From a virus (Duplodnaviria > Caudoviricetes): a stretch of 56,076 nt of DNA. Shown in pieces: positions 8,866-52,536 of the stretch (within the stretch, counting starts at the first letter, position 1; each line of letters opens with the position of its first letter). Both the position numbers and the translations under genes were made by a program. The stretch spans positions 1-56,076 of the IMG/VR virus record IMGVR_UViG_3300012953_000039; one strand, given 5' to 3'. Below the pieces are notes generated by a model that was not told where the DNA came from, did not search any database, and was given only the letters and a program-made list of their open reading frames with translations.

Positions 8866-9075
8866 ATGTCAATTACTATAATGGTACGAAATAACAATGT
8901 GGAACAAGCATTAAGAGTACTAAAAAAGAAGTCTCAAAAAGATGGACTTTTTAAAGAGTTAAGACAGAGGCAATATTACGAAAAACCTTGCGATAAAAGA
9001 AATCGTAAGAAAAAAGAAATGATAAAGGCTTGTAAAAAAAGAGATAAAAAATTAGCCGCTATTAGAGGATATTAA
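8866..9075 (+). CDS. rpsU: ribosomal protein bS21
   Basis: VRNNNVEQALRVLKKK...ELRQRQYYEKP...RKKKE signature; 69 aa, basic. Confidence 0.9.
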   Translation: MSITIMVRNNNVEQALRVLKKKSQKDGLFKELRQRQYYEKPCDKRNRKKKEMIKACKKRDKKLAAIRGY

Positions 9076-13029: not shown

Positions 13030-13472
13030 CAAACGGAGACATTAAATGGTCGCCAGAAGATATGCTTGAAGTTACTATTAAGCAACCTGACGATTTTCTA
13101 AAAGTGCGAGAGACACTTACCAGAATAGGAGTTGCAAGTCGTAAAGACAAAACTCTATTTCAATCTTGCCACATATTACACAAACAAGGCAAATACTTTA
13201 TTGTACACTTTAAAGAACTATTTGCTCTTGATGGTAAGAAAGCAACATTAAGCGATAACGATATTCAAAGAAGAAATACAATTGCAGTATTATTAGCAGA
13301 TTGGAACCTAATTGATATTGTCAAAAAGGCAGACGCAGAAAACAAAGCGCCTTTATCACAAATAAAGGTATTACCTTTTAAAGAAAAGAAAGAATGGAAC
13401 CTTTCTGCCAAATATAACATTGGTAAGAAAGTTGAAGAGAAAACGGAAGCACCTAGTAATGAAGGACAATAA
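13026..13472 (+). CDS. regA: translational repressor RegA
   Basis: DDFLKVRETLTRIGVAS...QSCHILHKQGKYFIVHFKELFALDG. Confidence 0.95.
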   Translation: MTNGDIKWSPEDMLEVTIKQPDDFLKVRETLTRIGVASRKDKTLFQSCHILHKQGKYFIVHFKELFALDGKKATLSDNDIQRRNTIAVLLADWNLIDIVKKADAENKAPLSQIKVLPFKEKKEWNLSAKYNIGKKVEEKTEAPSNEGQ

Positions 13473-23316: not shown

Positions 23317-23393
23317 CTGCTCGTAGCTCAACTGGATAGAGCACCAGTCTTCTAAACTGGATGTTGCAGGTTCAAGTCCTGCCGAGCAGGCCA
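23317..23393 (+). tRNA. trnR: tRNA-Arg (anticodon TCT)
   Basis: Acceptor CTGCTCG/CGAGCAG, D-arm GCTC/GAGC, anticodon arm CCAGT-CTTCTAA-ACTGG, T-arm GCAGG-TTCAAGT-CCTGC, encoded CCA. Confidence 0.95.
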
Positions 23394-23407: not shown

Positions 23408-23436
23408 TTGACATAGGGATAAATATGATGTAGTAT
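23408..23436 (+). promoter_or_regulatory. sigma70-type promoter
   Basis: GCTTGACA-N17-TAGTAT before the 23468 ORF. Confidence 0.55.
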
Positions 23437-23467: not shown

Positions 23468-24871
23468 ATGGCAGTTTTAGGAAAGACAGATTTTATCCGA
23501 GACGGTAGTAACTATCGTTCTTCTGGTGGTAAATATGCTGGTAAAACTAGATTTGAAATCGTTGATTTGATGATTGAGAATAATGAAACTTTTGTAGAAG
23601 GCAAAACATCTACTGGTCGTAAACTAAAAGCAATTAGACGAGTATCTAAAACAAATGTCTATCCTGTAATATTACAAGTTAAATCTAATACAGGAAAAGA
23701 TATAGAAGAAATTTCAATTACAAAAATTTTTAAGTCACCACTATTTGGTGGTGGAGGTGGTTCAGGTGGTGGTGCGGCCGTAACTGCTGTAACAGAAAGC
23801 GCTCAATGTTATTATTGTTCACTTGCTTTCAATGTTAAACGAGGACCAATTAAATTAACAGATTGTACAGACGCTAATTTAATGAAGGCGGCCAAGTATG
23901 TACAGGCAACCGTACAAGTAAAAGCAATGGTAGATAGATTACCAGACGATTGGCCTACTACACTAATCAAAAGTGCAAACGAAATTTATAAAAAATATAG
24001 TAGTAAAGTTACAGGTTCAGTATACTTTCATAGAGGTTCACCTTTTATGGATAAAGTATATAGGGCAAAGAAAGAAGTTATGAAGTTAGATAAACAATCA
24101 GGCACACCACAGGCACCTGGTTCGTTTTCAGATGACAAATGGAATCCTGGTGACATATGGATGACCACAATGTCTCCTGGTGCAGACCCTTTGAAAGAAT
24201 TTCAGAAAGATTGGTCTATATTAAATCAAGCAGTTTTAGATAGGGCAGGTCGTCTGCAAAATCCTAAAACATTTTTACTTGGTATCTCATTAAAGAAATT
24301 AGGTAACACCGTAACACTAAAAGAGTTTAATTCTCCAGGCAGAATTAAGATGGTTAAACATCAATACAAAGGTTATAAATGGGGTACAAATAATAAATTC
24401 TTTTCATCAATTGATATGTATATGGGAATGGGTACTGGTCAAGTCCAGTTTAGAGCATTTGCTTCTACATCATCTTGGCAAGGTGAAATAAAAGGTGTAT
24501 CGGCCGCAGGTGGTAAAATTGGTGGTGGTAACTTAAACTTTTATTTAGAAAGACATTTACGAAAAAGTATTGGTGGTGGTCTTAAAGGTAAGAGTTGGAA
24601 AGAAACACCAGGTAATCAAGTTAAGTTAAATGAAATGTATCTACTATTTAAGAAGTGGGTACCAAAAGACCAACTAGTAGAACCTAATGTTTTTATTAGT
24701 ATGTGTATTGAGAAAGGTGGTAGTTTTATCTTCTCAAAAAATATGTGTTTACAATTTTTAGACACATTTATGTCAGGTACATCTAGTCAAAGAAACGATG
24801 TTTGTACTGATATTATTAGATATGCTTCTAGTAGTAGTGACCAATCTTCTTTTTTTGTGAAGGTGTCATAA
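23468..24871 (+). CDS. putative PD-(D/E)XK-fold nuclease
   Basis: TAVTESAQ, DKWNPGDIW and LLGISLKK resemble a restriction-endonuclease-like core; Gly-rich linker GGGGGSGGG. Confidence 0.5.
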   Translation: MAVLGKTDFIRDGSNYRSSGGKYAGKTRFEIVDLMIENNETFVEGKTSTGRKLKAIRRVSKTNVYPVILQVKSNTGKDIEEISITKIFKSPLFGGGGGSGGGAAVTAVTESAQCYYCSLAFNVKRGPIKLTDCTDANLMKAAKYVQATVQVKAMVDRLPDDWPTTLIKSANEIYKKYSSKVTGSVYFHRGSPFMDKVYRAKKEVMKLDKQSGTPQAPGSFSDDKWNPGDIWMTTMSPGADPLKEFQKDWSILNQAVLDRAGRLQNPKTFLLGISLKKLGNTVTLKEFNSPGRIKMVKHQYKGYKWGTNNKFFSSIDMYMGMGTGQVQFRAFASTSSWQGEIKGVSAAGGKIGGGNLNFYLERHLRKSIGGGLKGKSWKETPGNQVKLNEMYLLFKKWVPKDQLVEPNVFISMCIEKGGSFIFSKNMCLQFLDTFMSGTSSQRNDVCTDIIRYASSSSDQSSFFVKVS

Positions 24872-24875: not shown

Positions 24876-24883
24876 TATAAATA
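24876..24883 (+). promoter_or_regulatory. T4-type late promoter TATAAATA
   Basis: Exact motif, intergenic, heading the 24952-33904 gene block. Confidence 0.75.
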
Positions 24884-24951: not shown

Positions 24952-26166
24952 ATGTTTAGTTTTAAAGGATATTCTTCTAGTGGTGCGAATACACACCTAG
25001 AACACCTAGAAGATAGTATAATCAACGATGGCGCTAAGGGTGGCAGAAATGCAATTGCATTTTTAAAATCTTTACAAAAAATGCTCTCGGCAAATGTTAG
25101 CAATAAAGTTAATGTTACCGTGAAATGGGATGGAGCGCCTGCTATCGTTTGTGGTACTAATCCTGAAAATGGCAAATTCTTTGTCGGCACAAAATCTGTA
25201 TTCAACAAAACACCAAAAATCAATTACACATCTTCAGATATAGCACGAAACCATCCAGGTGGTGTCGGTGCAACACTTCAAATAGCATTAAGAGAATTAA
25301 AGAAACTAGGTATTAGAGGTATCGTACAAGGCGATTGTCTCTTTACTAACGACACAAAGAAAGTCGTAAACATAGATGGTCAATCTATGATATCATTTAC
25401 ACCTAACACAATCACATATGCAATGCCAGCCAATAGTGCAGTAGGTAGAAAAATTGCAAGAGCAAGAATGGGTATTGTATTTCACACACAATATAATGGT
25501 AAGACTATGGATAGTCTAAACGCTTCATTTGGTTATGTATCAGGAATTAGAAGTGGTAGTGTATGGGTACCATCGGCACAATACAAAGACGCTAGTGGTA
25601 GTGCAAGTTTTAGTCGTGCTGAACTTACAAAGTTTAATGCACAATTAAGAATGGCAGAAGGTAGTTTAAATAAGGCCGCACCATTACTAAATCAATTTGA
25701 TAGTAGAGACGAATTATCTGTAGGTTACAGATTAAAAACTTATTTCAATAGTATCGTAAGAGGTACTTCTGGTATGGGTAGAGTAAAAGATTTAGTTGAT
25801 AAGTTTCCAGATTACTATGAGAACTTTATCAATGCAGAAATAGACGCTAGAAAAACACCGAAAGGTAAAGAAAAATTTAAAGTCGCAAAAGAAAACAATA
25901 CAAAGTTTATTGCTCGTAATAAACAATCTTTATATTTTGCAATCGCAACTTATGTAACATTACAAAATTGTAAAGGTATTGTATTAAGTAAACTTGCACA
26001 AATACAAAGTGTAGGACATTTTTTGAGAACTGATAGTGGTTATAAAGTAACAGCACCTGAAGGTTATGTTGCAACTGACCGTGTCGGTAATGTTGTTAAA
26101 CTGGTAGATAGATTAGAGTTTAGTAGAGCAAACTTTACTATCGCCAAAGATTGGGTGAAAGGTTAA
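24952..26166 (+). CDS. ATP-dependent ligase / covalent nucleotidyltransferase-like protein
   Basis: Motif I-like TVKWDGAP, VQGD, motif IV-like PEGYV, motif V-like VKLVDRLEFS; N-terminal THLEHLED. Confidence 0.6.
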   Translation: MFSFKGYSSSGANTHLEHLEDSIINDGAKGGRNAIAFLKSLQKMLSANVSNKVNVTVKWDGAPAIVCGTNPENGKFFVGTKSVFNKTPKINYTSSDIARNHPGGVGATLQIALRELKKLGIRGIVQGDCLFTNDTKKVVNIDGQSMISFTPNTITYAMPANSAVGRKIARARMGIVFHTQYNGKTMDSLNASFGYVSGIRSGSVWVPSAQYKDASGSASFSRAELTKFNAQLRMAEGSLNKAAPLLNQFDSRDELSVGYRLKTYFNSIVRGTSGMGRVKDLVDKFPDYYENFINAEIDARKTPKGKEKFKVAKENNTKFIARNKQSLYFAIATYVTLQNCKGIVLSKLAQIQSVGHFLRTDSGYKVTAPEGYVATDRVGNVVKLVDRLEFSRANFTIAKDWVKG

Positions 26167-26200
26167 TATGTTATATGATACAACAGGTTCAGGAGGCGCA

Positions 26201-26800
26201 ATGCTAGGATTTAAAGATTACATAATAAATCATTTGTTAGAAGCAAAACAAACTAGAATTATTATTATGGGTGGTCCAGGTTCTGGCAAGTCAACTTATT
26301 CAGAATATTTAATTAGACACTTTGGTATTAAACACATTTATCCTGGTGGTCTATTAAGAAAAGAAATAGACAAAGGTGGTCCAGAAGGTATGAAGATTAA
26401 AAAACTTTTAGACCAAGGTAAGTTTGCACCAAACGATGTTGTACTAAAATTAGTAAAAGAAGCATTATCAGAAGATGACGCTTCAAAAGGATATGTTCTT
26501 GATGGTTATCCTAGATATATGCAACAAGTAAGAGATATGGAAAGAGAAGGTATCGCTTATGATGTTGTTGTTTATCTTGAAGTTAGTGAAGAAGAAGTAA
26601 TTAAGAGACTGACAAAGAGAGGTAGAAAAGATGATAAGCCAGATATTATTCGTAGCAGAATTGCTTTATACGAAAAAGAAACAGGTCCAGCGATTGAACA
26701 CTACAGAAAAAAAACAGGTTTCATTTCTATCAAGGCTCAAGGAAAAGAACCTGGCGACATTGCAAAAGATATTATCAGGGAGATAGAAAGTGAACTTTAA
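26201..26800 (+). CDS. adk: adenylate (NMP) kinase
   Basis: IIIMGGPGSGKST, GYVLDGYPR, RGRKDD...RIALY; AGGAGG SD before ATG 26201 (track start 26168). Confidence 0.88.
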   Translation: MLGFKDYIINHLLEAKQTRIIIMGGPGSGKSTYSEYLIRHFGIKHIYPGGLLRKEIDKGGPEGMKIKKLLDQGKFAPNDVVLKLVKEALSEDDASKGYVLDGYPRYMQQVRDMEREGIAYDVVVYLEVSEEEVIKRLTKRGRKDDKPDIIRSRIALYEKETGPAIEHYRKKTGFISIKAQGKEPGDIAKDIIREIESEL

Positions 26801-27104
26801 CGATTATCAGAATTTTACAAGTGTAACAGCAATTTATGATGACAAAGATAAAATAAATTATCCTATGATTGGACTATGTTCAGAAGTAGGAGAAGTTGCA
26901 GACAAAATTAAAAAGAATATGAGAGACGGAAACACATATTCAAAAGAAGATATCGCAAAAGAATTAGGAGATTGTTTGTGGTACATCGCTGCTTTATGTA
27001 GAGATTTAGATATCAATATGGAAGATGTAGCAGAAGCAAATTTAGAAAAGTTAAGAAATCGTATGAAACAAAATACAATTTCAGGAAGTGGTGATGACCG
27101 ATAA
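26790..27104 (+). CDS. mazG: MazG-like NTP pyrophosphohydrolase
   Basis: GLCSEVGEVADKIKK...KELGDCLWY...NLEKL...GSGDDR. Confidence 0.88.
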   Translation: MNFNDYQNFTSVTAIYDDKDKINYPMIGLCSEVGEVADKIKKNMRDGNTYSKEDIAKELGDCLWYIAALCRDLDINMEDVAEANLEKLRNRMKQNTISGSGDDR

Positions 27105-27384
27105 GTATAGACCACTACCAGATAATTTGACAATTAAACTATCGCAGATAGAAGGTTATGGTATATTCGCAAAAGAAAATATTGATAAGTGGACTGACTT
27201 GGGTATTGGTTGGTTGACACACGGAAGAGAATTATTTAGAACACCATTAGGTGGTTTCATTAATCATAGTGATAAACCTAATGTACAGAAAATTGAAGTT
27301 GATGGAAAATATTATGTACAAACATTAACAGATATTAAAAAAGGAGAAGAGATAACTTTAAAGTATACTCTTTACAAAGTATGA
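27094..27384 (+). CDS. SET-domain protein
   Basis: IEGYGIFAKENI, GFINHSDKPN, DIKKGEEITLKY: the three SET signature motifs. Confidence 0.8.
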   Translation: MTDKYRPLPDNLTIKLSQIEGYGIFAKENIDKWTDLGIGWLTHGRELFRTPLGGFINHSDKPNVQKIEVDGKYYVQTLTDIKKGEEITLKYTLYKV

Positions 27385-30300
27385 AACAATTTAAATCCAT
27401 AATACAAGAGGGAGTTTACGACCCAGGTATCTTCAAGGCGTTCTTCCTTGCAGGTGGTCCAGGTAGCGGTAAGACATTCGTTACTAGTAGAACTACCGTT
27501 GGTATGGGTCTAAAGATGGTTAACTCTGATACAAGATTTGAAAACTATTTAAAGAAGGCAGGTCTATCTTTAAAAATGCCTGACAATGAGGCAAGTGTAA
27601 GAGACCCATTAAGAGCAAGAGCAAAACAAGTTACTGGTGACCAGATGGACTTGTATATTAAAAACAGATTAGGTCTTGTTATAGACGCTACAGGTAGAGA
27701 CTATAACATAATACAGAAACAAAGAAGTATGTTGATGATGTTAGGATACGATTGTTATATGGTATTCGTAAACACTTCTTTAGATGTTGCGTTAGAAAGA
27801 AATCAGACTAGAACTAGAACGGTACCAAAAGACATTACAATTAAATCTTGGAATGCAGTACAGAATAATATAGGTCGTTTTCAGAATATGTTTGGTTCTT
27901 CACAAATGATTATTGTTGATAATAACAATGCGAGTGAAGACACACTAAACAAAGTTTATAGTAAAGTTAGAAACTATGTAAGGGCACCTGTTAAATCTTA
28001 TATTGCAAAACGATGGATGGAAAATGAACTCCGTAAAAAGAGATTAGGTATTAGAGAAAGTGTTAATGATATGACACACCCTAAAACAGAACCAAAACCT
28101 GTAAACAATGTTGTAGGTGACTGGAAGAATATAGATGTACCATCACCAACTTTAAATGATAGTGAAGAGACTAAATCAGAAATGATGATGATGTCTAAAC
28201 TATTTGAACAAAGAAACAATGCAATTGTACAAAGTATTAAAGACCACGACAATGAAGTATTTTATGGTATTGAAAGTTACTTAATGAAATACAATTTAGA
28301 ATATAAAATGAAAGATATTCAAAATCTAAAGAAAATAGGTAGTGGTGTTGTAAGACATTTTAAAAACAAGTTTCAAAGACCAAGACCATATGAACTTGCA
28401 GATGGTTTAAATATGAAATTTAATCATATGGAACTTATATCAGATAGTATGAAAACTCCTGCGTATCCATCAGGTCATAGTTTACAATCAAGATTGATTG
28501 CAGAATTTTATGGTAAGTTATATCCTAAACATAAACAAAACTTAATTGACTTGGCAGATGAATGTGGTTATGGTAGAGTACTTGCTGGTTGGCATTATCC
28601 ATCTGACCATATTGAAGGTGTTAACATTGCTAAAAAATTAATCAATATGGTTAATTTACAAGAAAGTATTATTGATATACCAAGAAGAACTTATGCACCT
28701 GCTGTATTTGATAAAGAAGATACAAACAATCCTAAAATAAAACCAAGTGTTATTAAACTAATCAAAGACCAATTAAAAGTATTTGAAAAAGAATATCCTA
28801 TTATGAAGTATGGTTTGATTGGTTCTATACTTACAAAGAGATATAGAAATGACGCAGATTTAGATATCAATGTTTTATTTAAAGTACCAGAAAAAGATAG
28901 AGAAGAAGAAAGAACTTTATTATCTCTTAAATATCTATCAACAAAGAATCCTGATAACATACAAGGTAAATTAATACCTGGTACACAACACCCTATTAAC
29001 TATTACTTTTTAACTGACCCTAAACTTTACAAAGACCAAGAACAAAAGGCAGACGCTGTATTCTCAATTACTAGAAATACTTTTGTCAAAAGGCCTGAAG
29101 ACTTTGAGTTTAATGTTAGTGATTACATTGATGACTTCAATAAAAAAGTACAAGAGTTAGATGTTGTCAAAGGTGAATTAAAAAGAGATATAATAGACTA
29201 TGACGAATTAAAAGAATTAGGTCCTAAAGAAATAGAAGGTTTACAAAATAAGATATCAAGTAAACTAGATGAGATAGAAAATGATATAGAGGACATAATA
29301 AGAATTGGTGACGGAGTTGACGCTGAAAGAAGAAAGGCGTTTGATACAGATATGTCGCCAGACGAAATCAGAAAGTATGCTATAAAAAACAGATTACCTA
29401 AAAATGTAATCTATAAGATGTTAGAGAAATATCATTACATTACTTTCTATAAAAAGTGCAAAAAGATTATGGATGACGGAGTTGTAACAGACGATGAAAT
29501 AGATAGTCTTAAAGAAGCAGTCGGTACACCAAAGAAACATATCGCATTTACATTTGGTAGGTTTAATCCACCAACGATAGGTCACGAAAAGTTAGTAAAC
29601 AAAGTGGCGTCTGTAGGAGCGAATGATTATCTCATTGTACCAAGTGGGTCTAATGACCCTAAAAAGAACCCATTAAAAGTTAATGACAAAATTAGAATGA
29701 TGAAAAATATGTATCCTAGACACCAGAGTAAGATAAAACAAATACCTGGCGCTAGAACAGCAATTGAAGTTATTAATAAATTAAATGGTAGAGCAAACGA
29801 AATAACAATGGTAGTTGGTTCAGATAGAGTAAGAGAATTTGAAACACTACTTAACAAATATAACGGAGTACAAGCAAGAGGTACTAATTACGAATTTGAT
29901 AAAATCAATATTGTAAGTGCTGGAGAAAGAGACCCAGACGCTGAAGGCGCTATGGGTATGTCAGCAAGTAAAATGAGAGACGCCGCTAAGAACGATGACT
30001 TTAATAGTTTCAAAAAAGGGTTACCAACTTCTTTTAGAGACAAAGAAAAGTTATATGGTCTAGTTAGAAAAGGTATGAACTTACAGGCAAACTTTAGTGG
30101 TCCTGGTATAGGTACATATAAACCTACAGCGAGTGTTGAGAGTTTTACTCAATGGCAAATAAGAGACTTGTATATCCGTGAACAACTATTTAACATAAAC
30201 GATATTGTAGAAGACCAAGAGCAAGATGTACAAGGAAAAGTAATTAGAAGAAGTACAAACTATATTGTAGTAGAAGACGATAATTCTAAACTACATAAAT

Positions 30301-30926
30301 GCTGGATATGGAATTGTATTCCAACAAGTAATATAGACGAAGTAAAATTACACGAAGTAAATCTAAACATAGACTATGGTTTTGAAGCAGTATCAGAAAC
30401 GGAAGTCAAAATGCAAGAAGAGAAGAACAATGGTAAACAAATTTCTGAAAGAGATAAGATACCGCAAGATAAAGATGTGGCCAAAAAAGACGGTACGCAA
30501 CCTAAAAAATACTACAAAGATATGTCAAAAGGCACAAAAAGTAAAAGAGCAGATTACTTTGCCAAACAAAAATATAAGAAGTCAGACGATGACAACGATT
30601 ACAAGGCTGCGCCTGGCGATAAAGACGCTAAGACAAAGACTAGTAAACATACAAAGAAATACCAACAAATGTATGGAAAAGAAGCATACGAAATAGGTAA
30701 AGAATACGCCGACCATACGAAGAGTATGACACCTGGTGAACCAGAATATAAGAAAGACGACAAAATAACTGATAAAGATATCAAAGAATGGGCATCCTCA
30801 AATGATACTATTGATAAATATAAGAAACGATATGGAGAAAACTATCAAAACGAGATAGATGAGGCTGTGAAAAAGATGGAGGAGAGATTGAAAATTCAAT
30901 CTTTTAAAGACTATGTTAAGATTTAG
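27381..30926 (+). CDS. multidomain protein: zeta-toxin-like P-loop kinase + PAP2 phosphatase + pol-beta-type nucleotidyltransferase + HIGH-family cytidylyl/NMN-adenylyltransferase + basic C-terminal region
   Basis: AGGPGSGKT and LVIDATG; KNKFQRPRP, YPSGH, RVLAGWHYPSD; IGS...DADLDINV; FGRFNPPTIGH and MSASKMR. Confidence 0.8.
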   Translation: MKQFKSIIQEGVYDPGIFKAFFLAGGPGSGKTFVTSRTTVGMGLKMVNSDTRFENYLKKAGLSLKMPDNEASVRDPLRARAKQVTGDQMDLYIKNRLGLVIDATGRDYNIIQKQRSMLMMLGYDCYMVFVNTSLDVALERNQTRTRTVPKDITIKSWNAVQNNIGRFQNMFGSSQMIIVDNNNASEDTLNKVYSKVRNYVRAPVKSYIAKRWMENELRKKRLGIRESVNDMTHPKTEPKPVNNVVGDWKNIDVPSPTLNDSEETKSEMMMMSKLFEQRNNAIVQSIKDHDNEVFYGIESYLMKYNLEYKMKDIQNLKKIGSGVVRHFKNKFQRPRPYELADGLNMKFNHMELISDSMKTPAYPSGHSLQSRLIAEFYGKLYPKHKQNLIDLADECGYGRVLAGWHYPSDHIEGVNIAKKLINMVNLQESIIDIPRRTYAPAVFDKEDTNNPKIKPSVIKLIKDQLKVFEKEYPIMKYGLIGSILTKRYRNDADLDINVLFKVPEKDREEERTLLSLKYLSTKNPDNIQGKLIPGTQHPINYYFLTDPKLYKDQEQKADAVFSITRNTFVKRPEDFEFNVSDYIDDFNKKVQELDVVKGELKRDIIDYDELKELGPKEIEGLQNKISSKLDEIENDIEDIIRIGDGVDAERRKAFDTDMSPDEIRKYAIKNRLPKNVIYKMLEKYHYITFYKKCKKIMDDGVVTDDEIDSLKEAVGTPKKHIAFTFGRFNPPTIGHEKLVNKVASVGANDYLIVPSGSNDPKKNPLKVNDKIRMMKNMYPRHQSKIKQIPGARTAIEVINKLNGRANEITMVVGSDRVREFETLLNKYNGVQARGTNYEFDKINIVSAGERDPDAEGAMGMSASKMRDAAKNDDFNSFKKGLPTSFRDKEKLYGLVRKGMNLQANFSGPGIGTYKPTASVESFTQWQIRDLYIREQLFNINDIVEDQEQDVQGKVIRRSTNYIVVEDDNSKLHKCWIWNCIPTSNIDEVKLHEVNLNIDYGFEAVSETEVKMQEEKNNGKQISERDKIPQDKDVAKKDGTQPKKYYKDMSKGTKSKRADYFAKQKYKKSDDDNDYKAAPGDKDAKTKTSKHTKKYQQMYGKEAYEIGKEYADHTKSMTPGEPEYKKDDKITDKDIKEWASSNDTIDKYKKRYGENYQNEIDEAVKKMEERLKIQSFKDYVKI

Positions 30927-31452
30927 TGATTATGTAGGTAAGATAACTACTTCTTTACATTATCATATAGAGAATAACATACCTCTTGCAGAGAATGTGT
31001 ACAGAGTACATAGTGAAGAGTTTTATAAACTTTTCAGAGAAGCAAGAGACCTCTGGGTTGATGGTTTACTTGATGTTGAAAGTGATTGGGATAGAACTTT
31101 ATTAGAGAGTGATATTGGAGAGTTTGCAGATTACGAAGGTATGAAAGTACCATTAGATTGTCCAATACAAGAGGAGGAGAAAAAAGACCCACCTCTTAAC
31201 AAACCTAAAAAAGGTGGACCCAAAAAGTTTTATGTATTCGTAAGAGACGGTGATAAAATAAAAAAAGTAACTTGGGGTGATACTACAGGTTTAAGAGTTA
31301 AACTTGATGACCCGAAGGCGAGAAAGAGTTTTGCGGCCAGACATAGATGTGACCAGCAAAAGGATAAAACAAAGGCCGCTTATTGGGCTTGTAACTTACC
31401 TCGTTATGCAAAGTCGCTAGGACTTTCAGGTGGAGGTAACTTTTTTTGGTAG
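30913..31452 (+). CDS. conserved phage protein (probable internal virion protein)
   Basis: KKFYVFV...KKVTWGD...RKSFAARHRCD...AAYWAC; N-terminus MLRFSDY. Confidence 0.6.
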   Translation: MLRFSDYVGKITTSLHYHIENNIPLAENVYRVHSEEFYKLFREARDLWVDGLLDVESDWDRTLLESDIGEFADYEGMKVPLDCPIQEEEKKDPPLNKPKKGGPKKFYVFVRDGDKIKKVTWGDTTGLRVKLDDPKARKSFAARHRCDQQKDKTKAAYWACNLPRYAKSLGLSGGGNFFW

Positions 31453-31461
31453 GAGGTTTAG

Positions 31462-31734
31462 ATGAGTTGTTTTTACGATATGCGAGAAGACGAGACACAA
31501 ACTTCTTGGCAGAGAGCATTTAATCACGATGTCAAAGACGAAGAGTTAGTTTGGCATAGAGACGAGAACGATAGAATTGTAAAAGTTATTTCTGGCGTAG
31601 GCTGGAAGTTTCAATTTGATAATGAACTACCGATGACTATGGAAGTGGGGAAGAAATTTAAAATTCCTAAAATGACTTACCATAGAATTATAAAAGGTGA
31701 AGGACGACTAATTTTAGAAATAAAGGAAATTTAG
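31462..31734 (+). CDS. cupin-like protein
   Basis: LVWHRDENDR...WKFQFDNELP...IPKMTYHRIIKG two-His cupin pattern. Confidence 0.55.
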   Translation: MSCFYDMREDETQTSWQRAFNHDVKDEELVWHRDENDRIVKVISGVGWKFQFDNELPMTMEVGKKFKIPKMTYHRIIKGEGRLILEIKEI

Positions 31735-31743
31735 GAGAAAACA

Positions 31744-33594
31744 ATGACAAGATATACAAAATCAATGAGAGAAGCACTAGAAGAAGTGTGGGCGAATGAT
31801 GTTGCCATAGAAGAAGGCAAGATGAAAACAATCGCTACTCTTTTTGACCAGGGTAAATCTGCTGAAGAAATTGCGAAGAAAATGAAACTTCCTCTTTCAA
31901 CTATTAAAACAATTCTAGGTGAGACAGATATCAAAGAAGATACCTTAAACGAATTTACAGACGCTCAAATTGCTAAACTAAAGAAAGAATATATGCCTTT
32001 AAAAGGTGCTAGAATTTCTATGGCGAAAGCAAATCAATTGAGAAATATCTTTGATAAGATACCTGACCACGCTCTTCCTAAATTATTTAAAGCAGACATA
32101 CCATTTATATCTGCAATGTCAGTATCAAGAATGATACAAAAGAAAATACCTGTACCAAAAGGTATTAAACTTTCTGCGTTTGAACAGAAGTCTTGGGAAC
32201 AAGTACAAGAAGAAGAAACTCCTAAAGAAGAAATAAAAGAATTTAAGAAAATGAAAGTTACCATACGAGATATGGATAAACGAAAACAAGCAATCACAGA
32301 TTTACAGAAACAAAATTTAGGTGTTTCAGTAACAGGTGGTGTAATCAAAGTTGATGGTAAAGGTAGAGACCTTAATAACTTTGCAAAAGATTTAATGAAC
32401 TTCTATGGTGCAAATGTTGTTGCTGAAGAAGTTGAAGAGATTAAAGAATACAAAGAGTACCTAGAGTATATGTGTAAAAACTCTGGTCAGGCAAGAGCAA
32501 TTGCTAATATGTTCAAAGGTAAAACAGGTGGTGGTGAAGTATCTGCCTCTGGTTCAGAAGTTAGAATTGATAGTGCAAAAGATGTAGAGAGTATTCATAA
32601 GGCTGTTATTGCGAAGTACGGAGACGATGTAAGAGTAATGACTGCTGAACAAACAAGTTTAGAAGAAGGCACAGGAACTATTAAAGGTTTCAGAGACGAT
32701 AAAGAAAAGTCTAATATGGTTTCACTTGCTAAACAACACGGTCTAAAAGTATCAGATGTACCTGGTGGTATTGAACTAAAAGGTAATATGAGAAAGATAC
32801 TAGATATGCAATTGGCAACTAGGTCTCACTTAAAGACAGAAGAAAAAGAAGAAGATATGACTAAACCTACTCAATTAAAATCTTTTAAAGATATGAAAGA
32901 TGAGAAGGAACCTAAAGAAGAGAAGAAACCTAAAGTAGATGTAGACGCTCTTAAAGACCAAATACAAATGTTGAAAACTAAATTAGAGAATGAAAAGAAT
33001 AAGGCAATCAAACCTGAACCTAATTCAGAAACAGGTGAAGTACCTTTACAAGTAGGTCTTGCACATAAGATTTTAAGAGATAAACAAGAAAAAGAAAAGA
33101 CAAAAATGAAAGAAGGTTTTGCTTCAGACGCTCAAAGAAAGGCCGCTTTTGCAAACGGTTATAAAGAAAAGGGCAAAGATAAAAAAGAGGCAGACTTATC
33201 TAAATCACAAATTAAGATGGTACATAAAAAAGCAGATGATTTACCGAAGAAATCCTTTAAAGATAGATATGGTAAAGACGGTGATAGTGTAAGATACGCT
33301 ACTGCTACAAACATCATTAAGAAAAAAGAAAAAATTGAAATGGTAAATCATCCTGCAAAGATGAAGTACGAACAAATTTCTGCCTTAAAGAAAAAGTCAG
33401 ATAAATCAGGAATGCCTTATGGTATTCTTAAAAAAGTATATGACAGAGGTATGGCTGCTTGGAAAGGTGGACATAGACCTGGTGCAAGTCAACACCAATG
33501 GGCTTTCGCTAGAGTAAATTCATTCATCACAAAATCTAGTGGCACTTGGGGAGGTGCAGATAAAGACCTCGCCGCTAAAGTAAAAGGAAAATAA
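31744..33594 (+). CDS. modular Lys/Glu-rich probable internal head protein
   Basis: Short modules separated by (L/I)-x-E; C-terminal LKKVYDRGMAAWKGGHRPGASQHQWAFARVNSF. Confidence 0.55.
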   Translation: MTRYTKSMREALEEVWANDVAIEEGKMKTIATLFDQGKSAEEIAKKMKLPLSTIKTILGETDIKEDTLNEFTDAQIAKLKKEYMPLKGARISMAKANQLRNIFDKIPDHALPKLFKADIPFISAMSVSRMIQKKIPVPKGIKLSAFEQKSWEQVQEEETPKEEIKEFKKMKVTIRDMDKRKQAITDLQKQNLGVSVTGGVIKVDGKGRDLNNFAKDLMNFYGANVVAEEVEEIKEYKEYLEYMCKNSGQARAIANMFKGKTGGGEVSASGSEVRIDSAKDVESIHKAVIAKYGDDVRVMTAEQTSLEEGTGTIKGFRDDKEKSNMVSLAKQHGLKVSDVPGGIELKGNMRKILDMQLATRSHLKTEEKEEDMTKPTQLKSFKDMKDEKEPKEEKKPKVDVDALKDQIQMLKTKLENEKNKAIKPEPNSETGEVPLQVGLAHKILRDKQEKEKTKMKEGFASDAQRKAAFANGYKEKGKDKKEADLSKSQIKMVHKKADDLPKKSFKDRYGKDGDSVRYATATNIIKKKEKIEMVNHPAKMKYEQISALKKKSDKSGMPYGILKKVYDRGMAAWKGGHRPGASQHQWAFARVNSFITKSSGTWGGADKDLAAKVKGK

Positions 33595-33595
33595 T

Positions 33596-33904
33596 ATGGC
33601 ATATTTAAAATCAAAACCTGGTTCAGTTGAAGAGGCAATCACGGCTGCAGTAATGCAAGAGAAGTTGTCACCTAAACAGAAGAAGATAGATAAGAACAAT
33701 AATGGTAAGATTGACGCTTCAGACCTTGCAAAATTAAGAGCAAAGAAAGAAGATAACAATTCAGATACAATATTACCAAAGTCTCAATCTCCTAAATCTG
33801 ACAATTTAGATATTAAAACTACGGAACCTGTTAAAAAAATTACAGATAACAAGTCAAAGACTGATAAAATAGAAGTAAATCCTAAAATTGACTATTCTGC
33901 ATAA
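33596..33904 (+). CDS. hypothetical protein with EF-hand-like loop
   Basis: IDKNNNGKIDASDL. Confidence 0.55.
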   Translation: MAYLKSKPGSVEEAITAAVMQEKLSPKQKKIDKNNNGKIDASDLAKLRAKKEDNNSDTILPKSQSPKSDNLDIKTTEPVKKITDNKSKTDKIEVNPKIDYSA

Positions 33905-36041: not shown

Positions 36042-36203
36042 ATGGATACAATAACTAGAAAATCTGAAACCCTACAGGAAATATTAACTACAAATCCTAA
36101 CGAAGTTAATAAAGAAAAGGAACTTAATGATTTTGAAGAAGATTTAGTTAATCCTAAATCTGATAAATTAAAAGAAAAAGAGGAAAAAAATGAAAACATT
36201 TAA
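36042..36203 (+). CDS. hypothetical protein (53 aa)
   Basis: Read manually: MDTITRKSETLQEILTTNPNEV...; fills the gap. Confidence 0.4.
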   Translation: MDTITRKSETLQEILTTNPNEVNKEKELNDFEEDLVNPKSDKLKEKEEKNENI

Positions 36204-36618
36204 AGAACATTTAAAAGAAGGCAATGGAAAAATGGTTGGTACTTCTACTAGTAATGCAGTAGAAGATGGCAGTATGTCAACAGCCAATTTGAAAGACCCA
36301 TCCGTTCTACAAAGAGTTAATGCGTTTGTTGGTTCTGTAGCAGATATGGAATATATCAAGGCTCAGTACGCAGTAGACAAGTTAAGAGAAAACCTTATGA
36401 GAATAGGATTAGATATTAGTCCTATGAAATTAGAAGGTGCAAGTGGTACGGTAACAGGAGAAGTTAAGCAATTTGGTGGTACTTATGGTAAGACTACTGA
36501 AACTAAACCTGAAGATGTGGTAGTAGATAATGGTCCAGGTATTGATAATTTAAAATTAGAAGTTAAATACGAAACATTGTCTAACGGTTCATCAAAGGTT
36601 TACGCTAAACTAGTGTAA
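36190..36618 (+). CDS. probable internal head protein
   Basis: N-terminus MKTFKEHLKE closely matches the T4 capsid-targeting sequence. Confidence 0.6.
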   Translation: MKTFKEHLKEGNGKMVGTSTSNAVEDGSMSTANLKDPSVLQRVNAFVGSVADMEYIKAQYAVDKLRENLMRIGLDISPMKLEGASGTVTGEVKQFGGTYGKTTETKPEDVVVDNGPGIDNLKLEVKYETLSNGSSKVYAKLV

Positions 36619-36985: not shown

Positions 36986-37575
36986 TGGCAAGTAGAGCAG
37001 TAGATTTATTAATAGCATATAGAGTGATTAAGTTATTAGTTACTCCGTTTGACAAGCAAGAAGCATTTGCTACAGGTATCATTGATAAAAATGGTAAGGT
37101 TTTAAAACCAAACAGACTATTAAAAACATCAAAAGAAAAATCATCGTATACTATGTTACATAGATTTGTTTTTAACCTAAAACGAATACTAGGTAAAGTT
37201 GGTCTTGGTGGTCGTATTGGTAGTTTCGCTACAGCACTTGCATTACTAGTTAAAGAAGATAAAGATTTTGCAGATAGACATAGTGCAATATTAGAAGAGA
37301 CTTGTATGAAATATTTAAAGTCAATAGATGAGTTTAAATATCCTACCTTTGTTAACGAAGAATACTTTGTACAAAGAAAATTACAAGAAGGAACATATAT
37401 GTTGAAAGAAGACCTGTATGATGGTGATGAGTTTATTTCAAAAGATAGTGAAATCGTCTGTATGGAAGAAACCTCACCCATAAATAATATATTAGGGCTA
37501 GACATATACAATTTACACACAGAAAGTGGATTAGAAGTTTTAGTCCCAGGAGATTTATTATATGCAAAACTTTAA
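36985..37575 (+). CDS. conserved T4-like hypothetical protein
   Basis: YRVIKLLVTPF...GIIDKNG...YTMLHRFVFNLKRIL. Confidence 0.65.
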   Translation: MASRAVDLLIAYRVIKLLVTPFDKQEAFATGIIDKNGKVLKPNRLLKTSKEKSSYTMLHRFVFNLKRILGKVGLGGRIGSFATALALLVKEDKDFADRHSAILEETCMKYLKSIDEFKYPTFVNEEYFVQRKLQEGTYMLKEDLYDGDEFISKDSEIVCMEETSPINNILGLDIYNLHTESGLEVLVPGDLLYAKL

Positions 37576-38446
37576 AGATGTATGGGAAGCGTGTTGGACT
37601 GGTTACAAACAGGTTGGTTTCAAGAAAAAAGGAAACAAACAAGTACCTAATTGTGTACCAGAAGAAGCAGAAGCAATATTTGATTTAGATGAAAAGGCAA
37701 AAGAGTTTCATCTATTTACAAATAAACCAGACGCAGAAAAGAAAGCAAAAGAGATTGGTGGTAAAGTAGTAACTGGTACTGGTAAGTCAACTGGTTATTT
37801 CGCCGCTATGAAAGAAGACGCTCCAGCAAATGCTGTCGCAGGAGGTGGGGTATCTATGCCACCAGACGCAGTACAAGATAAGAAAAAGAAAAAAGATGAC
37901 GCTGAAGATGTTTTAAGAAGAACAATAATGAAAAAGTTATCTTCAAAAATTCAAGAAAATAATGTAGGTAATAATGCTATACTAAATGGTGTATTAGACC
38001 AATTAGATAGATTAGATGTAATCGTAGATGAACTTACATATGGAAAGTCAGAAGCGACTTTCGTAGATACAACTCCCAAAAAAACAATACTAGAAAAAGC
38101 AAAACTAAAAGAATATGGTAGTGGTGCTCTTGGTAGTATTGGACAAGGTAGTTATGGGGCAATGCACCCTATCGCTTCACTAGGTGATACACCACCAAAG
38201 GGTAGACATAGAACTATGAGAAGTGTAGGACTTGTTTCACAAAAAGACCCTAGGCACGGTATAGACCAAGACAAGAAAACAGCAAACTTAAAAGTTGTTG
38301 CAAGAGAAGACGCACCTGATACCGAAGACGCAATGAAAAGATACAAAGCAGGTAAGGCAGGTTTTGGTGATATAACCCACCTAAAAGCAAAAGGATTAAT
38401 AAAGAGGTCAGATGGAACAAAACGAAAATCTGACAAATACAAATAA
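37562..38446 (+). CDS. probable internal head protein
   Basis: MQNFKDVWE then ACWTGYKQVGFKKKGNKQVPNCVPE; further E-terminated modules (MKE/DAPAN, LKE/YGSG). Confidence 0.55.
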   Translation: MQNFKDVWEACWTGYKQVGFKKKGNKQVPNCVPEEAEAIFDLDEKAKEFHLFTNKPDAEKKAKEIGGKVVTGTGKSTGYFAAMKEDAPANAVAGGGVSMPPDAVQDKKKKKDDAEDVLRRTIMKKLSSKIQENNVGNNAILNGVLDQLDRLDVIVDELTYGKSEATFVDTTPKKTILEKAKLKEYGSGALGSIGQGSYGAMHPIASLGDTPPKGRHRTMRSVGLVSQKDPRHGIDQDKKTANLKVVAREDAPDTEDAMKRYKAGKAGFGDITHLKAKGLIKRSDGTKRKSDKYK

Positions 38447-39434: not shown

Positions 39435-39914
39435 ATGATATTTGGATATGCAAAAATGATAATGGTTGGTGTGTTGGTCGCTGGTATCGCAGGTGCTGGT
39501 GTATATGTAATGAAGTTACAAAAAGACAACGCAATTCTTAAAGCCAATCAAATCAAACTAGAGCAATCAGTAGAAAGTCAGAAGAAAGTAATAGAAAAGC
39601 AGAAAGCAGACTTTGGTCAGATACTTGAAGCGAACAAGAAAATGAACGCTTTAGTTAATAATCTACAAAAAGATTTAGCAGATTTAGATAAGAGATTTAC
39701 TAAAGGTGGAAGAGACTTTGGTAAAGTTGCATTAGAAAAGACAAAGGTAATAGAGAAGATAATCAATAGTGGTAGTGATAATGTTCTCCGTTGCGTAGAA
39801 ATATCAATGGGAGCACCATTGACAGAAGAAGAGAAGAAAGCCACGAAGAAGTCTCAAATTAACAGAGAATGTCCAACAATAGCGAACCCGAATTATGTAC
39901 CATATAATAATTAG
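39435..39914 (+). CDS. inner-membrane spanin (Rz-like)
   Basis: N-terminal TM helix, long coiled coil, C-terminal Cys pair; overlapped by a lipoprotein gene. Confidence 0.65.
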   Translation: MIFGYAKMIMVGVLVAGIAGAGVYVMKLQKDNAILKANQIKLEQSVESQKKVIEKQKADFGQILEANKKMNALVNNLQKDLADLDKRFTKGGRDFGKVALEKTKVIEKIINSGSDNVLRCVEISMGAPLTEEEKKATKKSQINRECPTIANPNYVPYNN

Positions 39915-40254
39915 TATATTACTCATATTCATTCTATCAGGTTGTTCTAGCGTCAAGAAACTTGACATATTTACAACAGAGGTAGAAAGACAAGAGTTAG
40001 ACCTACCTAAACCTACTACACCTGAATTAGAGAAGTTAAGATGGATTATCATCACTTCTGAAAACGCAGACGAGGTATTTGCAAAACTCAAAGAAGAGGG
40101 TATAGACCCTGTCTTATTTGGATTAACAGATAAAGATTTTCAATTAATCGCAAAGAATTTCGCACATATCAGAAATCATATGAAACAGACTAACGACCTA
40201 ATTGACGCATATAAAGAATATTACGAACCTGATAGTCAAAAATCTGACAAGTAA
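39895..40254 (+). CDS. outer-membrane spanin lipoprotein (Rz1-like)
   Basis: Lipobox LSGC, Pro-rich segment, overlaps the i-spanin candidate. Confidence 0.65.
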   Translation: MYHIIISILLIFILSGCSSVKKLDIFTTEVERQELDLPKPTTPELEKLRWIIITSENADEVFAKLKEEGIDPVLFGLTDKDFQLIAKNFAHIRNHMKQTNDLIDAYKEYYEPDSQKSDK

Positions 40255-40293
40255 AAAAGTCAAATTTTTCTTTTAAAACAAAAGCCTACTTTT

Positions 40294-40301
40294 TATAAAT
40301 A
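40294..40301 (+). promoter_or_regulatory. T4-type late promoter TATAAATA
   Basis: Exact intergenic motif. Confidence 0.7.
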
Positions 40302-40358
40302 ATCATATAGACAAACACTATGTCTATGAGAATTAAGAAATAAAAAAGGGAACACACA

Positions 40359-41195
40359 ATGGATAGATTATCAAAGTCTATTTTGTTATGTGTTGTTATG
40401 ATTGGACTCTTCATAGGGTCTTCTTGGGCTGATACTACTTCAAATGGGGCGACTACCAATGCACAGACAAATACTTCTGGCAGTAATACCACTATATCTG
40501 GTGGGTACTCGCAAGAGAGCACTACTACATACCAATCTGGTTCATCTAGTAGCACGACCTCTACAACTAACAACTCTACAAACAACACTTCAAGTCTAAA
40601 AGACCAACAGAATACTGCCTCAGCACCTTCTATGAGTGCGATGTCGCAGGATGTTTGTGCCGTAGGTATATCAGGTGGATTACAATATCCAGGTATTGGT
40701 ATGTCTTTCGGAAAACATATGATAGACGAAAATTGTGAAAGAATTAAACTATCCAAAGTTTTAAACGATTTAGGAATGAAGGTTGCTGCCGTATCAATCC
40801 TATGTCAAGACCCTAGAGTATTCTTTGCAATGGAACAATCTGGTACTCCTTGTCCTTTCCAAGGTAAAATTGGAGTAGCGGCTGCAGAAGAGTGGAAAAA
40901 ATACGATAAATTAAGACCTGATTTTGATGTCTATACAGAAAGATTGGCTCTTATACAAAACAGAAACAAAGAAGACGAAGACAAAACAGCAGAAGAGAAA
41001 TCTCTACAAATGCAACTTGACGAAACTACCGTTATTCTTAATGCAATCAAAAAAGAAAATGAGAAGATTGAGAACTACACAAAGAAAGTTGAGAAGCAGT
41101 TAGAGAAAGAGAAGAAAAAGAATGAGAAAAAGAAAAAGAAAAAATCTTCTGCAAACTTTGATACTTCAGGAACAGAAACACCAAAGGTTAAGTAA
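40359..41195 (+). CDS. secreted Cys-containing hypothetical protein
   Basis: Signal peptide (SWA/D), S/T/N-rich stalk, TASAPS...C...NCERIKLSK...CQDPRV...GTPCP. Confidence 0.65.
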   Translation: MDRLSKSILLCVVMIGLFIGSSWADTTSNGATTNAQTNTSGSNTTISGGYSQESTTTYQSGSSSSTTSTTNNSTNNTSSLKDQQNTASAPSMSAMSQDVCAVGISGGLQYPGIGMSFGKHMIDENCERIKLSKVLNDLGMKVAAVSILCQDPRVFFAMEQSGTPCPFQGKIGVAAAEEWKKYDKLRPDFDVYTERLALIQNRNKEDEDKTAEEKSLQMQLDETTVILNAIKKENEKIENYTKKVEKQLEKEKKKNEKKKKKKSSANFDTSGTETPKVK

Positions 41196-41231
41196 TGGAA
41201 TTTATACTAATATATTTAGGAGTTATGGCAT

Positions 41232-52241: not shown

Positions 52242-52536
52242 AGAAATGCGATTAGAGATAGTAAGAAAAAATCACAACAAGTGGTTGAAGTCTATCGGCG
52301 TGAATTTAGATAGTAATGGTAAAGTGATTAATAACTTTCAAGGTTATCCTTTTCCAGATTACTCTTCTAATAGAAAATCACTACCTTGTTCAAACAGGAT
52401 AGTGTCAGGTGCAACGAAAAGAGAGGTTATTAAACCTAAACTACCTGAAGGTAAAACAATCAGTATTGCATACAACAAAGGTAATTATCAAGTTGTAGAC
52501 ATTGCTGATATTACAACAATGGGAAGGAAAGTATGA
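52210..52536 (+). CDS. hypothetical protein
   Basis: C-terminal ISIAYNKGNYQVV...MGRK; ATG 52210 is the likelier start. Confidence 0.55.
   Translation: MAKTKKNYLTREMRLEIVRKNHNKWLKSIGVNLDSNGKVINNFQGYPFPDYSSNRKSLPCSNRIVSGATKREVIKPKLPEGKTISIAYNKGNYQVVDIADITTMGRKV

Follow-up and report, generated by a model that had tools for sequence, protein, structure and literature searches.

Introduction

How does a marine phage come to carry four enzymes in one polypeptide, and is this polypeptide meant to be taken apart inside the phage head? The question is raised by IMG/VR virus record IMGVR_UViG_3300012953_000039 (Duplodnaviria; Caudoviricetes), of which we analyzed positions 1 to 56,076, hereafter the window. 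It contains an open reading frame (ORF) of 1181 amino acids (aa) with four enzyme modules. The gene island around this ORF is hyper-variable, and the phage is a T4-like marine myophage that counts pelagiphage HTVC008M among its relatives. A preliminary description, made from the sequence alone, had read this ORF as a polyprotein that is loaded into the prohead by one N-terminal signal and cut at (L/I)-x-E motifs lying at each domain junction, as known for the T4 protease gp21. Here, we report that motifs and module boundaries coincide far beyond chance, and that the joints nevertheless appear to be, first of all, the starts of formerly separate genes. Packaging of the protein with trimming of its leader is plausible in the light of related phages, and internal cutting would be a special case of it.

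Results

One open reading frame encodes four enzyme modules

Both the ORF and the module order given in the preliminary description were borne out: a leader is followed by a P-loop kinase, a PAP2 phosphatase, a polymerase-beta (pol-beta)-type nucleotidyltransferase (NTase) with a helical domain, and a HIGH-family nucleotidyltransferase, behind which lie a small beta domain, a charged low-complexity region, and a C-terminal helix (Table 1). The kinase module matches Pfam AAA_33 at residues 22–162 (42 bits, cut-off 27) and Zeta_toxin at 19–184. When modeled by itself (mean predicted local distance difference test score, pLDDT, of 71.6), it folds from about residue 13 to 222, while residues 1–12 are disordered (pLDDT < 50). 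The top Foldseek match of this model is a bacterial polynucleotide kinase (C. thermocellum, 4gp7, E 1e-7), followed by adenylate and other nucleoside monophosphate kinases at about 1e-6; the module is closest to the former with the latter close behind, and its substrate is putative.

The PAP2 module matches its Pfam family at 323–417 (37.5 bits, cut-off 27.2) and was placed on 7f18 in the PDB by phmmer (E 9e-8) and by Foldseek (E 1.8e-6, also PhoN). The sequence reads KNKFQRPRP, PSGH, and GRVLAGWHYPSD, which we take to be the three PAP2 catalytic motifs. The module appears to resemble soluble class-A acid phosphatases and, being internal to the chain, it cannot have a signal peptide. The NTase stays below the Pfam cut-off (NTP_transf_2 at 462–511, 18.7 bits versus 21, E 0.0023); nevertheless, its G-S...D-L-D motif is readable, and Atlas groups it with viral stand-alone NTP_transf_2 clusters at 0.97. 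The NTase could not be placed beyond these clusters; searches of the PDB with phmmer and a family profile placed only the PAP2 part and, weakly, PPAT.

The HIGH module matches CTP_transf_like at 724–823 (38 bits, cut-off 21), and phrog_395 'cytidyltransferase' spans 717–1036 with an E-value of 2.9e-72. Its motif T-I-G-H at 732–735 is invariant among homologues, and Foldseek returned NadD (8aih, 9e-5), NadM (2qjo), and PPAT. Scores were far under the NCBIfam equivalog cut-offs for NMNAT (TIGR00482: 25.7 bits versus 112; other models likewise). The low-complexity region contains 33 K+R and 30 D+E among 147 aa. No peptidase or anchor domain (MPTase, MuF, DarB, relaxase) was found among the Pfam, PHROG, and NCBIfam matches of the ORF. 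With regard to function, two pathway guesses may fit: salvage or regeneration of nicotinamide adenine dinucleotide (NAD), or end-healing of cleaved RNA, the latter because the order kinase–phosphatase–nucleotidyltransferase recalls that of the bacterial RNA-repair protein Pnkp.

(L/I)-x-E motifs coincide with independently derived boundaries

All motifs listed in the preliminary description are present, i.e., IQE10, IRE226, LQE428, LKE712, LHE992, and the QSFKDY tail (QSFKDYVKI). Its reservation that (L/I)-x-E is common by chance was also justified. The protein contains 15 [LI]xE motifs, compared to 10.5 ± 2.9 in shuffled sequences, 9% of which reach 15, and a single motif near any single boundary is unremarkable.

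Module boundaries were derived from fold models and split relatives, without use of the motif. In an AlphaFold model based on 55 homologues (mean pLDDT 60.6), PAP2 spans about 260–423 and the NTase 434–579, the helical part extends to about 709, and the HIGH module reaches from 718 to about 900. Between these folded modules, pLDDT falls below 50 at just two places, 424–433 and 710–717. Among split relatives, the kinase gene stops at about residue 221–224, and NTase genes start exactly at ...E/SIIDIPR (here and below, a slash follows the P1 residue of a possible cut). Four test intervals for P1 were picked after the model and independently of the motif (6–12, 223–259, 424–433, and 710–717). Out of 20,000 shuffles, one placed an [LI]xE motif in all four, and none did so with [LI]xE[GSA]; moreover, the leader and the three joints account for four of the five [LI]xE[GSA] sites of the protein. 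The coincidence of motifs with boundaries, claimed before from position only, is far beyond chance.

The joints appear to be former gene starts

To describe the history of the fusion, we searched a large protein collection for homologues, which yielded 3041 relatives at E ≤ 1e-5 among 8000 scored candidates; 120 of these relatives are listed. These homologues are 90%-cluster representatives and mutually related; counts given here and below are not numbers of independent events. Architectures were assigned by sequence anchors (K, kinase; P, PAP2; N, NTase; C, HIGH module). The 120 listed relatives, the query, and its copy comprise P-N-C (48), N-C (48), K-N-C (18), K-C (4), K-P-N-C (2), and K only (1). 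Among them, K-P-N-C is represented by the query and its 99% twin. Modules are gained and lost exactly at the joints, in agreement with the gain and loss of domains that the preliminary description had anticipated.

The kinase is a separate gene in contigs L004 and L016 and in HTVC008M, where kinase gp129 and cytidyltransferase gp130 are two genes. In relatives of 77–79% identity, a kinase gene of 224 aa overlaps the start of the PAP2 gene; those of 75% identity have a separate kinase gene and lack PAP2. DNA alignment revealed that the window and contig L002 are without 36 + 28 = 64 nucleotides (nt) that are present in L004, L007, and L013. This loss deletes the kinase stop codon together with the ATG of the PAP2 gene and merges the two frames, and part of 'LGIRE' at junction 1 is old sequence in a new reading frame. 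The ancestral V-A-E/D is now I-R-E/S, a motif restricted to the window, L002, and L003. By this comparison, the kinase gene was joined by a recent in-frame fusion to an already fused PAP2–NTase–NMNAT-like gene, and the motif at junction 1 is a by-product of the fusing deletion. The same ORF occurs at 99% identity on two more independent contigs (L002 and L003), and as three independent contigs carry it, we regard the fusion as real and recent. The joining of two genes by an artefact of assembly or sequencing would agree with the two genes found at the locus in the nearest relatives and with the frame change involved, yet its probability is negligible: besides the independent contigs with the same ORF, protein cluster P0004 comprises 51 member sequences on 4 contigs, and what sets the fused form apart is the loss of 64 nt rather than an indel of one base. 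The artefact reading was ruled out on these grounds.

Junctions 2 and 3 tell an older story. Stand-alone NTase genes start with MKTFKE/SIIDIPR (21+2+5 proteins), MRFKDFIKE/S, or MISKFKDFIQE/S, and PAP2–NTase fusions read ...NITMRKTFKE/SIIDIPR at the joint, which is a fossil start including the Met (general form ...M[RK]K[ST]F[KQ]E/S). Junction 3 aligns with the starts of stand-alone HIGH genes, such as HTVC008M gp130 (MKTLKE/L), S-CREM2 gp154 (MKNFSSFLTE/A), S-CREM1 (MKRYTNFLSE/A), S-SCSM1 (MKSFLQFLKE/A), P-RSM4 (MKKFNAFLIE/A), and Melnitz (MKKFSEIIE/A). The motifs at both junctions are fossil leaders of former gene starts. At the end of the ORF, its tail and the start of the next gene form a near-duplicate of leader-coding DNA in different frames (Table 1). 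The tail QSFKDYVKI is kept in a subset of homologues, others ending in ...MIEKL. We read the duplicate as another scar, left by recombination at leader-coding DNA. Taken together, the joints as designed cut sites did not stand: they are first of all former gene starts, and junction 1 stems from the 64-nt loss.

Leaders are shared across the island and resemble those of T4 internal proteins

When encoded as genes of their own, island modules start with a leader of 6–19 residues outside the fold, typically M-K-x-F-K-[DE]-[FY]-[LI]-x-E; examples in relatives are MKTFKE/S, MKFKEFLLQE/G, and MKFKDFIDIDGLKHAKIEE/K. All 25 kinase-first homologues carry a 10-aa leader ending in [LI]xE/G, with E10 and G11 invariant in 17 of 17 aligned kinases, and 40 of the 48 PAP2-first proteins read ...KI[DEA]E/KP at about residue 19. 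In the T4 record, IPII and IPIII begin with MKTYQEFIAE/A and IPI with MKTFKEFTSTTTPVSTITE/A (MKTFKEF...ITE/A). Marine and T4 leaders agree in length (10 or 19 residues), in the M-K-x-[FY] start, and in the [LI]-x-E end. T4 IPI begins with the very same 'MKTFKE', and we take this protein to be cut after residue 19 (ITE19) and not at MKTFKE.

Conservation of the junction motifs, on which the preliminary description had made its reading depend, holds for the Glu and not for the strict motif. At junction 2, P1 is Glu in 115 of 116 homologues (99%) and Asp in one, while P3 varies (66 Phe, 31 Leu, 12 Ile, 7 Val); strict [LI]xE is found in 42/116. At junction 3, E712 is 100% and A713 98% conserved, with strict [LI]xE in 71/121 and Met or Val at P3 in about 22. 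A further 28 of the 121, including the nearest relatives, have an inserted S/T/N that puts Lys at P3 (SLKTE/A). E428, E712, and A713 are conserved beside variable stretches, and junction 1 is confined to one lineage. A similarly divided outcome applies to the proposed N-terminal targeting signal. A T4-like leader outside the kinase fold is indeed common to all kinase-first homologues, but the pattern by itself is not specific (see Discussion). The leader as a genome-wide signature was rejected, as clear cases are almost confined to the island in HTVC008M and a 109-kb relative; on head-module proteins of these two genomes, it was not seen.

A late-promoter-like box precedes the gene string

The DUF6267 gene, which lies behind a T4-type late-promoter-like box (Table 1), opens a string of ten genes (24952..33904) with gaps of ≤9 nt that contains the 1181-aa ORF. 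The window has six TATAAATA matches, each of them on the plus strand, and the late box is kept 75–78 nt upstream of the DUF6267 start in nine of nine close loci. In HTVC008M and the 109-kb relative, a TATAAATAGT box precedes structural genes; all 18 boxes of the latter are on the coding strand, before structural genes, protease, scaffold, and island. A Peptidase_S77 (gp21-type) protease is encoded by HTVC008M and by the relatives of 79% and 75% identity, with E-values of about 1e-35.

Homologues from the same island are reported in cyanophage virions

Cytidylyltransferase ORF154 of S-CREM2 was detected by mass spectrometry (MS) in CsCl-purified virions (3 peptides, 11.2% coverage), as were ORFs 155, 156, and 160, and its authors mention the 'frequent detection' of kinases and cytidyltransferases in cyanophage virion proteomes (PMC10665884). 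The S-CREM2 protein gp154 is homologous to residues 724–979 (31% identity, E 3e-31) and has a 10-residue leader, its gene is preceded by a hairpin and CTATAAATAG, and gp156 has a pol-beta NTase motif. The NMNAT of S-SCSM1 matches the HIGH module with 40% identity (E 5e-53) and starts with the leader given above; together with the adjacent genes 89, 90, 92, and 93, it is annotated as a virion protein (PMC9602691). A NATAAATA box lies upstream of each of the S-SCSM1 genes 89–92. The region also shows synteny: in both S-SCSM1 and the window, the island is placed between helicase/MazG and primase–NrdAB and is accompanied by a tRNA gene.

Gene neighborhood

The window has a GC content of 30–38%, and almost all of its genes are on the plus strand. 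It is a 56-kb fragment, about 30% complete, that covers the replication and nucleotide-metabolism part of a T4-like myophage. HTVC008M (Pelagibacter phage; Kyanoviridae) is the nearest isolate; a megablast of 20 kb against phage records gave no nucleotide-level match. Coordinates of the main features are compiled in Table 1.

Table 1. Features of the 1181-aa ORF and of its surroundings in the window.
Feature	Position	Strand	Remark
467-aa ORF upstream of late box	23468..24871	+	phrog_1462; homologue of S-SCSM1 'virion protein' SSCSM1_90
T4-type late-promoter-like box TATAAATA, extended TATAAATAGTAG	24876..24883	+	68 nt upstream of DUF6267 gene
DUF6267 protein, 404 aa, first gene past late box, N-terminus MFSFKGY...	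24952..26166	+	Pfam E 5e-122
Adenylate kinase with N-terminal extension, from M12: MLGFKDYIINHLLE/A	26168..26800	+	Pfam ADK from residue 33
Four-enzyme ORF, 1181 aa, 136.3 kDa, isoelectric point 9.0	27381..30926	+	single open reading frame
Leader MKQFKSIIQE, residues 1–10, then G11	27381..27410	+	T4 internal-protein-like
P-loop kinase module, residues 11–226, fold about 13–222	27411..28058	+	Pfam AAA_33, Zeta_toxin
Junction 1 motif IRE224–226, then S	28050..28058	+	made by 64-nt loss
PAP2 module, residues 227–428, fold about 260–423	28059..28664	+	Pfam PF01569, class-A acid-phosphatase-like
Junction 2 motif LQE426–428, then SIIDIPR	28656..28664	+	inside low-confidence linker 424–433
Pol-beta-type NTase (about 434–579) and helical domain (about 580–709)	28665..29516	+	weak Pfam match, viral clusters, model
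Junction 3 motif LKE710–712, then A	29508..29516	+	edge of low-confidence linker 710–717
HIGH-family (NMNAT/PPAT-like) nucleotidyltransferase, residues 713–about 900	29517..30080	+	Pfam PF01467, phrog_395
Small beta domain (935–983), charged low-complexity region (984–1130), C-terminal helix (1131–1180)	30183..30923	+	model, composition
Leader-coding tandem near-duplicate: ORF tail F-K-D-Y-V-K-I (30903–30923) versus next gene start (M-L-R-)F-S-D-Y-V-G-K-I (30922–30945)	30903..30945	+	different frames
142-aa ORF starting MKTFKEHLKE/G, first six residues as T4 IPI	36190..36618	+	no family match

The 467-aa ORF matches SSCSM1_90 in tblastn with 30% identity (E 6e-33). A tRNA-Arg gene (anticodon tct, 23317–23393), with a good sigma70-type promoter behind it (see Discussion), marks the upstream edge of the island, and the tRNA of S-SCSM1 is found at the same relative place. 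Phrog_455 joins DUF6267 and the HIGH module, which are fused in other phages. The DUF6267 proteins of Melnitz and C48C1 have the leaders LINFSKYITE/D and MMLDFKNFITE/Q; a K-x-D-G motif (KWDGAP) in the DUF6267 protein is reminiscent of ligase or capping nucleotidyltransferases, and searches of the PDB and NCBIfam returned no match for this protein. The N-terminal extension of adenylate kinase reads MDTFKQYLFNFLNE/A and MKTFRNFYEQQLLE/D in relatives; here, it amounts to about 18 extra residues ending in L-L-E/A, and a cut at this point would leave a near-canonical start. Directly upstream of the 1181-aa ORF, a 98-aa SET-domain protein (27088–27384, Pfam E 4.8e-11) overlaps its start by 4 nt.

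DUF5824 forms the C-terminus of HTVC008M cytidyltransferase gp130 (L001 6648–8435) and is found on a separate 616-aa protein in the window (31744–33594), and for this reason we count it as another mobile module of the island. The HTVC008M homologue of the 616-aa DUF5824 gene has its own TATAAATAGT box. A small Cys-containing module, C-W-x-G-Y-K-Q-V-G...N-C-V-P, is located at the N-terminus of the ORF at 37562–38446. The same C-W-x-G-Y-K-Q module is inserted in the tails of some HIGH-module homologues (P0059, P0092, P0094, and P0104) and is present in S-CREM2 gp160, which belongs to the proteins detected by MS in virions.

Outside the island, a 494-aa ORF between the regA-like and DNA polymerase genes (13472–14956) matches phrog_2599 'ribosomal protein S6 glutaminyl transferase' (E 2.8e-13) and has a leader-like start, MLQVQKFNQFLAE/K. 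By eye, the 69-aa ORF at 8866–9075 resembles ribosomal protein bS21, and HTVC008M has an annotated S21 gene. Two ORF clusters (39435–43388 and 52533–54870) show N-termini resembling signal peptides or lipoproteins (e.g., MSGLKWTVLLTILTL... and MVKNIIKIGAIAVLAITLNAC), and one signal-peptide-like ORF cluster is preceded by a TATAAATA box at 40294.

Discussion

Packaging with leader trimming and its alternatives

How could such a fusion be used by the phage? We propose that the 1181-aa protein would be made late from the TATAAATA box upstream and that its N-terminal leader would take it into the prohead core. A gp21-type protease would then trim it after Glu10, and the trimmed protein would be delivered with the DNA as a cargo of enzymes with nucleotides, NAD, or RNA ends as their targets. 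In this scheme, we infer the late timing of expression, the packaging, trimming, and delivery of the protein, and its substrates; the targeting role follows from the likeness of the leaders to those that direct T4 internal proteins to the capsid. Packaging together with leader trimming is plausible from the comparisons above, and we consider it slightly more probable than not. The case for the leader is carried by several features in combination, namely the boundaries of the folds, conservation throughout the family, synteny with genes whose products were detected by MS, and the late boxes. In view of the cyanophage proteomes and the T4 leaders, we set aside the interpretation of the junction motifs as mere fossils of generic gene starts.

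Several observations weigh against this proposal. The island is located in the replication and nucleotide-metabolism region, together with ordinary cytoplasmic enzymes like adenylate kinase and MazG. Upstream of the DUF6267 gene, none of the three distant isolates HTVC008M, Melnitz, and C48C1 has the late box (0/3). Moreover, a sigma70-like promoter (TTGACA-17-TAGTAT, 23408–23436) lies one gene upstream of the late box of the window, and as two weak terminator-like sites are found inside the gene string as well, expression timing may be mixed. Head genes, including one for a gp21-type protease, are absent from the partial genome that the window represents. The leader motif alone is not specific: a strict pattern is found in 4/44 island ORFs and 9/355 others (p = 0.044), matches including DNA polymerase and UvsX, and a lenient early [LIF]xE in 10/46 island and 45/353 other ORFs (p = 0.11). 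The conserved Glu residues at the joints may be structural, and the share of strict motifs at junction 2 speaks against internal cutting. As to the cyanophage proteomes, the S-CREM2 authors warn that the detected enzymes may be abundant carry-over contaminants (PMC10665884), and the enzyme is not listed in the available text on the S-CREM1 (14 virion proteins) and S-SCSM2R (23) proteomes. The literature searched contains no virion data for this phage or any pelagiphage. Nor does it contain a printed link between T4-type leaders and marine enzymes, subscription journals and supplements being outside this search.

In its strongest form, packaging would involve a true polyprotein, with the gp21-type protease cutting after E10, E226, E428, and E712 to release four ejected enzymes with predicted sizes of about 24.6, 23.4, 33.3, and 53.8 kDa. 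This special case finds support in the fact that each of the four sites matches [LI]xE, with G, S, S, and A as the respective next residues, that together they make up four of the five [LI]xE[GSA] sites, that junctions 2 and 3 lie in short low-confidence linkers with a near-invariant Glu, and that junction 1 changed to I-R-E/S. The good conservation of the fossil leaders in P-N fusions, including the Met, suggests that this joint still functions, and precedents exist in T4 Alt, which is cut internally at LTE-619, and in giant-phage ejection proteins, which are cut at several sites. Still, we regard the polyprotein as unlikely. Junction 1 occurs only in this lineage and arose by deletion, P3 at junction 2 is Phe or Val in a large part of the homologues (66 and 7 of 116), and even the 79%-identical relatives are among those with Lys at P3 of junction 3 (28/121). 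Separate enzymes could also result without proteolysis, from internal translation starts at fossil Met codons, since most PAP2–NTase fusions have a Met 6–11 residues before Glu428 (M423 here; 9 of the 48 P-N-C proteins have Leu in its place). We consider this very improbable: neither junction 1 nor junction 3 has retained a Met, and no Shine–Dalgarno-like sequence precedes the M423 ATG (gctaaaaaattaatcaat ATG). Missing a ribosome-binding sequence, an internal start at M423 was rejected.

Alternatively, the protein may be an ordinary cytoplasmic multi-enzyme, encoded by an auxiliary metabolic gene and never packaged. The N-terminal motifs would then have no targeting role and would reflect either gene starts of a generic kind, AT-rich or amphipathic, or joints of recombination, and the fusion would couple enzymes of nucleotide, NAD, or RNA-end metabolism. 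The surroundings, with genes for replication and nucleotide metabolism and a string that also encodes adenylate kinase and MazG, agree with this, as do the sigma70-like promoter, the weak specificity of the motif, the contamination caveat, and the two proteomes in whose available text the enzyme is missing. The modules also fit, given the Pnkp-like order, a kinase whose best fold matches are polynucleotide kinases, and an NMNAT/PPAT-like HIGH module. We nonetheless judge a purely cytoplasmic role to be somewhat unlikely. The leaders lie outside the folds, that of adenylate kinase adding about 18 residues, and they match T4 internal-protein leaders in length and pattern. In two cyanophages, runs of adjacent island genes, and not just one abundant enzyme, were detected by MS. 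Finally, the late box is present in all nine close loci, and T4's own ip genes are likewise found outside the head cluster.

Comparison with known systems

A capsid-targeting sequence is all that the diverse internal proteins of T4 have in common (PMC3012670), and such a sequence is used by all T4 internal head proteins (PMC5694885). The 1181-aa ORF resembles IPI, IPII, and IPIII in its short N-terminal leader of the same length and pattern, with diverse cargo behind a conserved leader. Further likenesses are the gp21-type protease, found here in relatives, and the gene position outside the head cluster and beside tRNA genes (T4 ipI adjoins the tRNA cluster). However, the T4 proteins are small and mostly non-enzymatic, whereas the putative cargo here would consist of enzymes of 20–135 kDa, several of which are fused in one chain with internal leader remnants. 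Closer in this regard is T4 Alt, an injected enzyme packaged in the head, from which gp21 removes a leader of 6 residues at ITE-6 and, by a second, internal cut, 63 residues at LTE-619 (PMC5694885). Alt differs in having a single catalytic domain of another fold and another function.

Polyvalent proteins (Iyer et al. 2017, PMC5512222) unite many unrelated effector domains in one polypeptide thought to travel with the DNA, show extensive domain shuffling, and have been proposed to release domains by proteolysis. The same kind of composition is found here, with four enzyme modules in the ORF and at least five architectures among the listed homologues. In contrast to the 1181-aa ORF, which is without a peptidase domain, polyvalent proteins often bring their own peptidase (MPTase) and anchors (MuF, DarB, relaxase); the ORF would need the prohead protease in trans, acting at leader-derived sites. 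PAP2 has no mention in the available text of PMC5512222. The ejection proteins of the giant phages phiKZ and SPN3US are also head-internal cargo, cut after the Glu of a three-residue motif and sometimes at several sites (PMC5694885), but their motif is A/S-x-E, where the slash denotes alternatives, and phage lineage and cargo are different. The nearest counterparts are the NMNAT-like 'cytidylyltransferases' of cyanophages (S-CREM2 and S-SCSM1; S-CBWM1 at second hand), which are homologues of residues about 721–980 with 31–42% identity and share island position, leader type, and late boxes. They consist of a single module or are smaller, and the papers, as far as available, do not deal with leader or processing and treat packaging as unproven.

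Implications for marine T4-like phages

The 1181-aa protein is a variation on the theme of T4 internal proteins and polyvalent proteins. A wider reading, which is tentative and in our view improbable as it stands, concerns the whole island between helicase and primase–NrdAB of marine T4-like phages (Kyanoviridae and pelagimyophages), which could be a cargo locus with a multi-use leader cassette. The leader would serve as capsid-targeting signal, prohead-protease site, and recombination joint at once, which would leave enzyme genes free to be exchanged, separated, and joined. For a fusion such as the 1181-aa protein, a single leader would suffice for loading, and cuts at the fossil leaders would yield separate enzymes, injected to prime the nucleotide, NAD, or RNA-repair state of the host.

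The T4-like myophages that infect SAR11 and picocyanobacteria belong to the most abundant viruses of the sea. If the cargo-locus reading is true, many so-called auxiliary metabolic genes (NMNAT-like enzymes, kinases, phosphatases, and adenylate kinase) would already be at work seconds into an infection. Their products would not need to await gene expression, e.g., in the face of NAD depletion or RNA-cleaving defences. The capsid-targeting rule of T4 would then extend far past the T-even phages, and a simple rule at the sequence level would allow injected proteins to be predicted and cargo to be engineered.

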